Source: a phage. From it: a DNA stretch of 64,000 bases. The notes under the pieces are model-generated. The model worked only from the letters and a program-made list of their open reading frames with translations, did not search any database and was not told the origin of the DNA. Of this stretch, positions 58,398-63,448 are shown in pieces. How positions within the stretch are numbered: the stretch's first letter is position 1; each line of letters opens with the position of its first letter. The position numbers and the translations under genes are program-made. Where the stretch lies: sequence record PX104379.1. One strand, 5' to 3'.

Positions 58398-58435
58398 GAC
58401 TACTATACCATAGTCTTGTCAGCTTGTAAACTAAA
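58398..58435 (-). promoter_or_regulatory. T4 early-type promoter upstream of dmd
   Basis: Plus strand ctactatacc ... 16 nt ... tgtaaac. Confidence 0.45.
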
Positions 58436-59858
58436 ATTTTAATTCATTTGCCAAAGCATCTAACTGAGCTCGAGTGGATTCATTTCTTTGATAGCGATTC
58501 TGCTCAGCCTGAATCTGTTGTGAACCTGCTACTTCACTCACTTCAGTTGGAGTAGAATCTTGTTCAATTTCTACCCATTTTTGATTTCCTTTTTGAACAC
58601 CCATCAAAAACTTATTCCACTTATTCTTATCACCATATCGTGATTTGATTTGCTTAATGAGTTGTTGTTCAGCAGCTGCTAGCTCCTCGGTTTCAATGAC
58701 CGCAAGCATAAAATCAGCTGTTGCTGGAAGACCAGCAGATTCTGCAATATCGCTCATGTTAACATCGGAAGAGTCCCAAGCTTGTTTACCAACCTGTGCT
58801 GCAGTCCAAAGAACAGTTTCGGTTTCAACAGCCAGAGCACGCAATTCCTCTGCGATAGCTTTAACAGTTGTGTAACTATTTTCTGAATAAACTCTAATGC
58901 GGCAAGATTTACAAATACCTAGATAGTCGACAATAATGATTGTTGGAACAAAATTCTTCTTGAGCTTTAATTCATTTAAAAGTGATCGAAATGTATTAGC
59001 GTCTGCTCCACCAGTAGGATATTGCTTAACGATTAAACGACCAAGGGTAGATTTCTCACGCCATTTTTCCATTTTTCCTTTATACTCAGCGTAAGAAATA
59101 TGTCCATCATCAATGTCATCAAGAGAAACATCAAGCATGTTAGCGTCAATACGCTTAGCACAGACTTCTTCTGCCATTTCCATGGAGATATAAAGAACGT
59201 TATGACCAAGCTGCAAATAATCTGCTGCTAATGAACAAAGTCCTAATGATTTACCAACGTTAACGCCAGCCATTAAAACGTTCAGTGTTCCAATTTCAGC
59301 TCCGCCTTTAGTAATTTTGTTTAGAATTCTGAGTTTAAATGGAACCTTACGAGCTTTATTCATATAAGATAGCCAACGCGCTTCATAGTCATCCATCCAA
59401 TCATGACCAACGTAGCTATCAAATGAAATTGATAATGCTTGGCGCATGATGTCAGGAATAGCACCTACATCTGGCATTTTCTTATTTCGTTTTTCCGGAG
59501 GAAGCTCAGCATTAGTTTGAATTTCGATTATTTTAGATGTAGCATTAAACATCGCCCTTTGCTGAACATATTTTTCTGTTTCTTTTACTAACCAGCTGTG
59601 GTCTTCTGGAGAATCAGCCAGTTTTGAAATAAGTGTTTTTACACCAGAATATTCTGTTTCAGTAAATGAACTATTTTCTAATGCAACATTTAACGCATTA
59701 ATAGATGGAACGCTATGATACTCATTAACATGAGATTTAATTAATTTGAATGTATTTTTAGCTGGACCACTTTCAAAATATTCTGAATCCATATATGGCC
59801 AAACTTTTGAAAAATAAGCTTGATCAAATATGAGATGAGAAAGAATAATTTCTACCAC
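58431..59858 (-). CDS. 41: replicative DNA helicase gp41 (DnaB-like), 475 aa
   Basis: 475 aa; Walker A GVNVGKS. Confidence 0.95.
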   Translation of the reverse strand: MVEIILSHLIFDQAYFSKVWPYMDSEYFESGPAKNTFKLIKSHVNEYHSVPSINALNVALENSSFTETEYSGVKTLISKLADSPEDHSWLVKETEKYVQQRAMFNATSKIIEIQTNAELPPEKRNKKMPDVGAIPDIMRQALSISFDSYVGHDWMDDYEARWLSYMNKARKVPFKLRILNKITKGGAEIGTLNVLMAGVNVGKSLGLCSLAADYLQLGHNVLYISMEMAEEVCAKRIDANMLDVSLDDIDDGHISYAEYKGKMEKWREKSTLGRLIVKQYPTGGADANTFRSLLNELKLKKNFVPTIIIVDYLGICKSCRIRVYSENSYTTVKAIAEELRALAVETETVLWTAAQVGKQAWDSSDVNMSDIAESAGLPATADFMLAVIETEELAAAEQQLIKQIKSRYGDKNKWNKFLMGVQKGNQKWVEIEQDSTPTEVSEVAGSQQIQAEQNRYQRNESTRAQLDALANELKF

Positions 59859-59867
59859 ACTTACTCC

Positions 59868-60230
59868 TTAAAAGAATTTAAATTTTTTCTTTGACCTTTT
59901 ATTAAATGCATCTTGCAGTTGCATTGTAATACATTTTTCTACATGAGGAGCTAACTCAGCTTTTCTTTCTTGGTCAAGAACAGCAAAGTCCATTACAACC
60001 TTTCCATCAACCCAATCCAGTTTAGTTACATACACTATATGTGTAGAACCATCTTCTAGTTTAATGACAATCTCCTGGATAACATTTTCCATAGCGGATT
60101 TAATTATCTTAAGAGACTCATTAAAAAGACGTTCTTTTCTTTCTTCTTCCCCCTCCAAAGAGGGGGATTCATCGATAATTTCTAGATCTAAATCTAAATC
60201 ATCTTTATTCATTAAATTCTTCCATATCAC
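59868..60230 (-). CDS. 40: gp40 head-assembly protein, 120 aa
   Basis: Located between uvsX and 41 as in T4. Confidence 0.7.
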   Translation of the reverse strand: MIWKNLMNKDDLDLDLEIIDESPSLEGEEERKERLFNESLKIIKSAMENVIQEIVIKLEDGSTHIVYVTKLDWVDGKVVMDFAVLDQERKAELAPHVEKCITMQLQDAFNKRSKKKFKFF

Positions 60231-61386
60231 TTAACTGCTCGAGGTCAGTTTCTAAATCAGCAGCTGATTTACTTTTACTTTCTGGAGATTTAAATTTTTC
60301 AACCTTTGAGTTAATCAATTCATCGACTTCAGCTTCAACAATTTCATTACTATCAATAGCACCTAACTGATAAGCACGTTTAATAGCATCTCGGAATGGT
60401 TGATGCTTAAATAAAGGACCCCAGAATGTAGTGCAGTTGGTATCTTTTGCACGCCAAGATTTTTCTTCGCGAATCATCTCGCCGGTTTCTTCATCAAGAA
60501 ATTCACGAGCATACCAGCCATTTTTAGGTTTTACCACGAATCCTAATTCTAGAGCCATATCTAACAATCCAGAATAAGGATCGATACCACCGTCAAATTT
60601 AACATCAATAAAGAATTTACTTTTTTCTTTAACGGTACGAGATTTTTCTACATTTAGAACAAATTGATACCCCTGAAGATCAGAACCATCTTTAATCTGA
60701 CGCTTACCGATAATGAATACAGTATCAGCCGAATACATTACGCCTGTACCACCTGTCATCACGGTTTTACTAAACATTTCAATTGTTTCAATTGTATGGT
60801 TAACCGCAACACATGGAATATTTTTAATGCTAAAGTAAGGAGTAACAATACGGAATAATGACTTCAGTGATTTAGCACGAGTCATATCTGCCACAGATTT
60901 TTCATTCAAGGCATCTTCAGTTTCTTTCTTAGAAGCCATATTACCGATTGAGTCGATGAATACAATAACTTTTTCACCGCGCTCAATAGCTTCAAGCTGA
61001 TTCACCATATCAATTTTTAGCTGTTCAACTGACTGAATCGGCGTATGAATTACTCGTTCCGGGTCAACTCCCATGGATCGCAAATAAGCTGGAGTAATAC
61101 CAAATTCGCTATCATAGAATAGACAAACCGCGTCAGGATATTTGTTCAAATATGCCGCAACCATAGTCAAAGACATATTTGATTTAAAGTGTTTAGAAGG
61201 CCCTGCGAAAATAGTTAAACCAGACTGCATGCCGCCATCAATCGCACCAGAAATAGCAATATTAAGCATTGGGATTTTTGTACGGATTACATCCTTTTCA
61301 TTAAAGAATTTAGATGTAGTCAGTTCAGCAGTCATTTTAGAAGTGGAAGCTTTAATCAAACGGGATTTTAAATCTGCAATAGACAT
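60205..61386 (-). CDS. uvsX: UvsX recombinase (RecA/Rad51 family), 393 aa
   Basis: Walker A GPSKHFKS; recognised as UvsX. Confidence 0.95.
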   Translation of the reverse strand: MSIADLKSRLIKASTSKMTAELTTSKFFNEKDVIRTKIPMLNIAISGAIDGGMQSGLTIFAGPSKHFKSNMSLTMVAAYLNKYPDAVCLFYDSEFGITPAYLRSMGVDPERVIHTPIQSVEQLKIDMVNQLEAIERGEKVIVFIDSIGNMASKKETEDALNEKSVADMTRAKSLKSLFRIVTPYFSIKNIPCVAVNHTIETIEMFSKTVMTGGTGVMYSADTVFIIGKRQIKDGSDLQGYQFVLNVEKSRTVKEKSKFFIDVKFDGGIDPYSGLLDMALELGFVVKPKNGWYAREFLDEETGEMIREEKSWRAKDTNCTTFWGPLFKHQPFRDAIKRAYQLGAIDSNEIVEAEVDELINSKVEKFKSPESKSKSAADLETDLEQLSDMEEFNE

Positions 61387-61463
61387 TCATTTTTTCCATA
61401 GGCATCATTATATTTTCCTCACTGGTTAAAGATAGAGTAATTATAACACAATAAATTTAGGCA

Positions 61464-62312
61464 TTAATCAACTGCTATCGGATGAATAGCATTAAACTTA
61501 TGAAATGCTTCTGATTTTTCTTTGCGCGAAACACACATGCGAAGAACCTTTAATGGCTCGTCTTCTTCACCCAACGATTTTCGTTTTTCAATATTAGAAG
61601 TTTTCCAACGAGCTTGCTCTGGAAACTCTCTATTGATTTGCTCAAGCGCTCTATTATGTTTAGAATTACTACGAATTGAACTACACCCGCCAGGAGCTTG
61701 CGCTTTACCTGATACAACCAGATATTTGAACAAGGCCAAATGCGGATAACCTTGATTAATTAAATTGAGAAATGCATACATATCTTCGCACAAATCAATT
61801 TTTCCATACCCAATTTGTTCTGTCGTAAGTTTTCCAAGGTCATACCATGTATTCGTGAATCCATATGAATTTTCACGATAATTACCCCAAGATGAAGTAA
61901 TTTTAAAAATAGGTAGACGAGCATGACCGTGATAATACCCGCAATCCATAGCATCTTCAACGTATTGAATCAATTCGTAGAATTGTTCACGGGTTAATTG
62001 ATTGACTTTATCTACACAGCGACGATCATCTCTTTTTCGCATTGAGCTCATACGAATCGTAGTATCATCGTCAATCATCCAGATTCGTTGACCTGCATAC
62101 ATATCAGTAATTGCTTTACGAGTACCGGCAATTCCGTTTACATCATCAGGAATAGTTACAATTTTAGCTCTAGACCCGTAAGCGTCATAATAAGCTTTTT
62201 CTTCGTGTTCACGCACTACAATATGGGGTTCATAATCAGTTGGAAACATATCAAGGGCAGAAACTGCCCCAACACGCTGATAGCTTGGAATTACGAATTG
62301 AATCATTTCCAC
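61464..62312 (-). CDS. putative glycosyltransferase (GT-A-like) at the beta-gt locus, 282 aa
   Basis: N-terminal VIPSYQR and DxD-type motif IWMIDDDTTI; lies between uvsX and 42. Confidence 0.6.
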   Translation of the reverse strand: MEMIQFVIPSYQRVGAVSALDMFPTDYEPHIVVREHEEKAYYDAYGSRAKIVTIPDDVNGIAGTRKAITDMYAGQRIWMIDDDTTIRMSSMRKRDDRRCVDKVNQLTREQFYELIQYVEDAMDCGYYHGHARLPIFKITSSWGNYRENSYGFTNTWYDLGKLTTEQIGYGKIDLCEDMYAFLNLINQGYPHLALFKYLVVSGKAQAPGGCSSIRSNSKHNRALEQINREFPEQARWKTSNIEKRKSLGEEDEPLKVLRMCVSRKEKSEAFHKFNAIHPIAVD

Positions 62313-63043
62313 TCACCGTTATAATCTTTTTTCACAATATGAGTTTCGCCAGTATTCCACCAATGATCAACCAAGTAAAAATGACGAGAATATACATGAA
62401 GACTTCCAACATTCCATATAATAGAACCTGCTTTATACTGACGAGTTGAATCGCCTGCATTCAAATCAGATACTAATTTATCTAATACGTATTTTTGCCA
62501 TGCATAATCATTACGGAATCCGAAGACCACGTCATTTGAACGCATGCTTACTACTGCATTGACTTTCTTATCACGAATCAGGTACTGTACTGTATTAGTA
62601 CACATGAAATCTGACATACCATCTTTATTGTAGTCAAATTGCATGGATGGACGAGTATAAATCATGATACCACGTCGAGAATCAGGATTTTGACCAAGTT
62701 CAGCTAAACACATATCATACTGGGCATAGTTATCTTCTGACCAAATAGCCCAACCATAATTCGAGTTAATTTCGCCTTTAGAAGATGCTACCTGCTGCCA
62801 AATCTTTGGTGTTTCACCTGGAATATCTTTAACAAACAAGCTCTTAGATTTATACCATTCAAGTTCGCGCTGAATGTATTCATCATTAAGAGCGCCAAAA
62901 ATAAACGGTTCATCTGCTACAAATGATGCGCCAATAATTTCAATAGTTTTAACACCGGTTTTATCAACTACGAAATCTTTTTCTTTTAATGCAAGCCCCA
63001 AATGAAGACGGATTTCTTCAACTGTCATAGAGTCACTAATCAT
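62303..63043 (-). CDS. 42: dCMP hydroxymethylase gp42, 246 aa
   Basis: 246 aa as T4 gp42; thymidylate-synthase-like fold. Confidence 0.9.
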   Translation of the reverse strand: MISDSMTVEEIRLHLGLALKEKDFVVDKTGVKTIEIIGASFVADEPFIFGALNDEYIQRELEWYKSKSLFVKDIPGETPKIWQQVASSKGEINSNYGWAIWSEDNYAQYDMCLAELGQNPDSRRGIMIYTRPSMQFDYNKDGMSDFMCTNTVQYLIRDKKVNAVVSMRSNDVVFGFRNDYAWQKYVLDKLVSDLNAGDSTRQYKAGSIIWNVGSLHVYSRHFYLVDHWWNTGETHIVKKDYNGEWK

Positions 63044-63196
63044 TTAAACCTCAATTGATACATTCATATTTAACTTGTAACAGTAATAAACTCCACCCTA
63101 AAATAATAGTTGGAATCATAAGAGGAACCGTTACGCTATAGTATATACTTATTATAATCATCAAGATTAAAAGCAACACTGTTATAATTTTGCTTT

Positions 63197-63448
63197 TCAT
63201 TCCTTCTCTCTGATGATAATTACTTGATTTTGTTGTGCAGACTTTTTAGTTTCACCCGCAATTGACCAAATAAATGTAATAAACCAACCAATAATTGACC
63301 AGTTAAACAGTAAAGATGTGAAAAAGATTCCTACTGTCGATTTTGACCCACGCATCAAGGCGATAAACCATGGAAGCATGTATATAATAATAGCCAACAC
63401 ACCTGAAACTAAAACCATAAAAATTGAACCTGCTACTAAAGTTTCCAT
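63197..63448 (-). CDS. imm: Imm superinfection immunity membrane protein, 83 aa
   Basis: 83 aa, two TM helices; sequence METLVAGSIFMVLVSGVLAIIIY recognised. Confidence 0.85.
   Translation of the reverse strand: METLVAGSIFMVLVSGVLAIIIYMLPWFIALMRGSKSTVGIFFTSLLFNWSIIGWFITFIWSIAGETKKSAQQNQVIIIREKE

Follow-up and report, generated by a model that had tools for sequence, protein, structure and literature searches.

The gene for the beta-glucosyl-HMC-alpha-glucosyltransferase (ba-gt or ggt) was reportedly cloned from phages T2 and T6 in the early 1990s, in work of Winkler and Ruger dated to 1993. In the pathway to which it belongs, gp42 yields hydroxymethyl-dCMP and hmC is incorporated at replication, the alpha-glucosyltransferase (alpha-gt) glucosylates about 75% of the hmC, and the T2/T6 ba-gt attaches a second glucose to the first by a beta-1,6 linkage to give gentiobiosyl-hmC (PMC13216743; bioRxiv 10.64898/2026.02.25.707755; PMC11078745). 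The T6 enzyme has been shown genetically to make gentiobiosyl-hmC, and its deletion leaves only alpha-glucosyl-hmC in a DNA that is then a substrate of Brig1 in vitro (PMC11078745) and of BapA deglucosylation (bioRxiv 10.64898/2026.02.25.707755). DNA with gentiobiosyl-hmC resists both Brig1 excision in vitro and deglucosylation by BapA (bioRxiv 10.64898/2026.02.25.707755; PMC11078745) and is still cut by GmrSD/BrxU-type enzymes (PMC13216743; PMC13390438). By setting the sugar pattern on hmC, ba-gt determines which host defences can act on the phage DNA, and its distribution has been surveyed in recent papers (PMC13216743; PMC13390438).

We analysed a stretch of phage DNA of 64,000 nucleotides (record PX104379.1), here called the window, and the evidence supports the reading of one of its genes as a T2/T6-type beta-glucosyl-HMC-alpha-glucosyltransferase, which adds the second glucose to phage DNA that is already glucosylated. 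Such a gene is already known and ordinary. The full T2/T6-type model, comprising membership of the TAGT (TET-associated glycosyltransferase) family, a GT-A fold and synthesis of gentiobiosyl-hmC, is given a probability of about 0.93.

An earlier note on this DNA had described a glycosyltransferase of 282 aa at 61464-62312. The open reading frame is present there on the minus strand, and the length of 282 aa holds for the maximal frame (61464..62312) read from its GTG, whereas the likely protein has 280 aa from an ATG at 62304..62306 to a TAA stop at 61464..61466, so that the coding sequence occupies 61464..62306 of the minus strand. The GTG at 62310..62312 was set aside as a start; it merely marks the beginning of the maximal frame, two codons ahead of the ATG. 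The ATG is preferred because three features agree, namely its ATGA overlap with the TGA stop of gene 42 at 62303..62305 (context AACGGTGAGTGGAAATGATT), a Shine-Dalgarno-like GGTGAG element that precedes the ATG at 62306..62304, and the same start annotated in the records of T2 and R5505, each with a CDS of 843 nt. The ATGA overlap also suggests that translation of ba-gt may be coupled with that of gene 42. A terminator-like hairpin (GGGGCAGTTTCTGCCCT) with a T-rich tail at 62254..62270 of the minus strand falls within the ba-gt CDS, at its 5' end, and was not read as functional. In a scan of 61300..63300 one terminator-like hairpin was seen against 0.7 expected by chance, and the counts of promoters and terminators were at chance level. 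The bases of this hairpin are kept in T2 and T6, yet they are coding. Rfam at gathering thresholds gave no match anywhere in the window.

The flanking genes lie on the same strand in the order gene 41 helicase (58431..59858, minus), gene 40, uvsX recombinase (60205..61386, minus), ba-gt and gene 42 (62303..63043, minus). Gene 42, encoding dCMP hydroxymethylase, was recognised by Pfam Thymidylat_synt (1.1e-15) and by gp42 at the syntenic place in the T2, T6 and T4 records; the two genes overlap, gene 42 being directly 5' of ba-gt. Its RefSeq name is 'thymidylate synthase', not dCMP hydroxymethylase. On the downstream flank, uvsX matched Pfam T4_UVSX_C (4.7e-39) and RecA and serves only as a synteny marker. 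The placement of the gene between uvsX and gene 42, as claimed before, is thus borne out by the reading frame map and by Pfam on both flanks. The accompanying claim that T4 has beta-gt in this interval is right as far as b-gt goes, but a GIY-YIG homing endonuclease, segA, also lies there, between uvsX and b-gt; T2, T6 and the window have no segA at this place, and in the window only 77 bp (61387..61463) separate ba-gt from uvsX. Between imm and gene 42 we also observed a very hydrophobic 49-aa reading frame (MKSKIITVLLLILMIIISIYYSVTVPLMIPTIILGWSLLLLQVKYECIN; 63051..63200, minus). It is intact in T4, T2, T6 and R5505, with from two (T4) up to eight (T6) substitutions, and is annotated in R5505 and not in the T4, T2 and T6 records; most probably it encodes a small membrane protein that annotators have missed.

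The protein is 277/280 identical to that of T2 (AYD82639.1), differs from that of T6 by four substitutions and is 100% identical to R5505 QBQ79650.1 and nine other translated records, a set of 10 that includes FelixPlatter, teqsoen, GiZh and PaulHMueller besides R5505. The enzymes of TB37, Solly and EH2 are 279/280 identical to it. Among translated records, 187 have an identity of at least 99%, 285 lie at 95-99% and about 200 more at 60-80%; phages of Klebsiella, Enterobacter, Salmonella and Citrobacter contribute many of the matches as a whole. PHROG 842, 'beta-glucosyl-HMC-alpha-glucosyltransferase', was matched at 3.3e-89, and NCBIfam holds no model for the protein. A comparison at the DNA level gave matches in 479 phage records, of which 475 have an identity of at least 90% (T2 95.5%), and many are annotated as beta-glucosyl-HMC-alpha-glucosyltransferase. 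As uvsX, taken for comparison, matches 563 records, the ba-gt arrangement is the common state in this group and the T4 arrangement is rare: most T4-like coliphages have ba-gt where T4 has its beta-glucosyltransferase. These counts agree with the report that nearly all such phages pair an alpha-gt or beta-gt with a TAGT (PMC13216743). Many GenBank records carry 'hypothetical protein', 'glucosyl transferase' or 'putative beta-glucosyltransferase' as the label of the gene, or give its name as 'b-gt', and the last two wrongly suggest the T4 enzyme.

Membership of the TAGT family was established with Pfam PF20691, which scored 38.1 bits against a gathering cutoff of 27.5 and covered residues 5-209 (numbering of the 282-aa frame), corresponding to positions 2-205 of the 205 in the profile. 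Two rounds of homologue search gathered 51 proteins, nearly all with PF20691. Conservation was assessed from an alignment (A2) of 49 sequences with identity down to about 13%, in which five residues alone never vary (R11, R63, D79, D80, D81) and I6 and P7 hardly do; the window allele retains every family-invariant residue. The AlphaFold2 model built on this alignment is confident (mean pLDDT 92.3, pTM 0.90) and forms a single alpha/beta domain of alternating strands and helices, with a strand E3-7 near VIPSYQR; this Rossmann-like alpha/beta/alpha domain matches solved GT-A structures. In a Foldseek comparison with viral models the best hit was the ba-gt of Klebsiella phage PKO111 (TM 0.96), and TAGT-domain proteins came next. 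Searched by sequence, the PDB returned chance matches only (E of at least 1.6), with no solved close relative detectable by sequence. Both motifs named in the earlier note are encoded. VIPSYQR (aa 5-11; 62274..62294, minus) covers the tail of the first beta strand plus the loop after it in the nucleotide-binding fold and resembles the N-terminal motif of GT2 enzymes, and DDD (aa 79-81; 62064..62072, minus) is a DxD-type acidic motif ending the strand E74-78 and is predicted to hold the cation and the diphosphate of UDP-glucose. The GT-A fold with a DxD-like motif that the note had proposed was confirmed by the fold prediction and by the invariance of D79-D81 in 49/49 homologues, and the T6 TAGT has been assigned likewise on the basis of AF3 (PMC13216743). 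Its further suggestion, a T2/T6-like transferase in place of beta-gt, is supported by identity to the T2/T6 enzymes, family, fold and synteny, the protein search having returned near-identity to these enzymes and no similarity to T4 beta-gt.

The substrate, the linkage and the alpha-gt partner we infer from published work and from what close relatives show. In the window phage, gp42 would supply hydroxymethyl-dCMP and replication would put hmC into the DNA, after which the phage alpha-glucosyltransferase, encoded outside the window, would add alpha-glucose to part of the hmC. Judging from the fold, the N-terminal nucleotide-binding half of ba-gt would hold UDP-glucose with the help of the IPSYQR loop and of a divalent metal on DDD. 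The enzyme would pass the glucose to the 6-OH of the existing alpha-glucose with inversion, the alpha link of UDP-glucose giving way to a beta-glycoside. The expected product is beta-1,6-glucosyl-alpha-glucosyl-hmC, that is, gentiobiosyl-hmC. Transfer in beta-1,6 linkage onto alpha-glucosyl-hmC is indirectly supported by the deletion of ba-gt in T6 (PMC11078745) and by HPLC/MS of the phages with a 279/280-identical enzyme. No alpha-gt was found in the window by tblastn with alpha-gt (best E = 4.9). R5505 and T6 carry it on the far side of genes 43, 62, 44, 45, 46 and 47, and the syntenic place falls about 11.6 kb past the end of the window; an alpha-gt is likely to be present in the window phage.

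Other readings of the gene were weighed against this model. The one point that would favour a divergent T4-type beta-glucosyltransferase is the map position, as T4 b-gt occupies the syntenic place. The sequence is, however, unrelated: BLASTP against T4 b-gt (NP_049658.1) showed no similarity (E = 2.2), the Pfam family of T4 b-gt (PF09198, so named in PMC13216743) did not match the protein in a Pfam scan up to an E of 1, and tblastn of the window with T4 b-gt returned nothing (best E 1.4). The fold is moreover GT-A as against GT-B, the two-domain GT-B architecture not being found in the window protein, and we discard this reading. [quoted passage not shown] Such an activity is nevertheless highly improbable for the present protein, which shares 99% of its residues with the enzymes of T2 and T6 and whose close relatives carry alpha-gt; besides, an enzyme acting on bare hmC is hard to reconcile with the about 25-35% of hmC that phages of this kind leave unglucosylated (bioRxiv 10.64898/2026.02.25.707755; PMC13390438).

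The gene could also be the same while its enzyme is weak as in T2, in which case the DNA would carry mostly mono-alpha-glucosyl-hmC and a few percent of gentiobiosyl-hmC. Nominally the protein is closest to T2, with three substitutions against four from T6, and gentiobiosyl-hmC amounts to about 5% in T2 as compared to about 72% in T6, despite the same gene pair (bioRxiv 10.64898/2026.02.25.707755; PMC11078745). But of the T2 differences R11H, V50I and P251S, the first hits a residue invariant in the 49 homologues, and the window has arginine at this codon (62274..62276). Of 682 phage records only 8 have the H11 peptide, seven from T2 and one from SV76, a phage of T2 size; all T2 records have His11, for example MH751506 (L001:3007-3849) and PV648363 (L006:207-1049), and among IMG/VR contigs the H11 pattern was found in none and the R11 pattern in five. 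The 279/280-identical enzymes of TB37, Solly and EH2 belong to phages whose DNA, by HPLC/MS, contains about 1/3 hmC, about 2/3 alpha-gentiobiosyl-hmC and a trace of alpha-glucosyl-hmC (PMC13390438), which again speaks against a weak enzyme, and we regard that outcome as unlikely. Presence of ba-gt does not by itself set the proportion of gentiobiosyl-hmC, since EL, BGP and Geo have the same gene pair and an intermediate pattern of about 1:2:2 (PMC13390438). Under the T2/T6-type model, the DNA of the window phage is expected to be T6-like, or at least rich in gentiobiosyl-hmC, because the invariant residues are kept and the protein is one residue off the enzymes of phages with about 2/3 gentiobiosyl-hmC. 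Extrapolating from these relatives and the literature, about 25-35% of the hmC would be bare and most of the rest gentiobiosyl-hmC, with little mono-alpha-glucosyl-hmC and no beta-glucosyl-hmC.

The T6 protein (YP_010067197.1 / AXN58083.1) differs from that of the window by Y40N, V50I, D55G and R106H, and each of the two T6 sequences in the collection has a lesion of its own in ba-gt. In MH550421 (L005:4138-4980) the Q10 codon CAG is changed to a TAG amber codon and a truncated CDS of 261 aa is annotated from M20, and in NC_054907 / AP018814 (L007:121-960) one Asp of the DDD is missing through an in-frame deletion of 3 nt in a GATGATGAT run; the window gene has neither. It is this DD form that PMC13216743 used, as the RefSeq T6 protein, for its TAGT reference. 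Either stock mutations or sequencing errors could account for these lesions. Taken jointly, the comparisons allow a tentative account, which we consider possible but doubtful, in which the window allele would be the natural fully active form, R11H a change in the nucleotide-binding loop that weakens the enzyme and so accounts for the contrast between about 5% gentiobiosyl-hmC in T2 and about 65-72% in T6 and natural relatives, and the T6 lesions a decay of the gene in laboratory passage. These mildly new points are offered as hypotheses on the laboratory relatives only and leave the content of the window unaffected. The gene family has been described and experimentally characterised, identical proteins are already in GenBank, and the window gene brings nothing new; its practical value lies in the correct annotation and the predicted T6-like pattern, for choosing phages against hosts with known defences.

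The closest known systems include those of T2 and T6 and the natural Tequatrovirus alleles (R5505, FelixPlatter, teqsoen, GiZh, PaulHMueller, TB37, Solly and EH2). The last show no notable difference from the window gene, and in several of their records it is labelled 'hypothetical protein' or, wrongly, 'beta-glucosyltransferase'. In T2 the protein also has 280 aa, and its gene overlaps gene 42 by the same ATGA and likewise has uvsX on its other side; T6 has the same gene and synteny, with its alpha-gt beyond gp47. GT2-like GT-A enzymes such as WrtF (9omh), TarP (6h1j) and SpsA (1h7l) have only 7-17% identity to the protein, and they glycosylate glycans, lipids or proteins rather than a DNA-borne sugar. 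T4 b-gt and ba-gt have in common the slot next to gene 42, the use of UDP-glucose, the beta linkage and phage DNA as target, but the acceptor of T4 b-gt is bare hmC whereas that of ba-gt is alpha-glucosyl-hmC.
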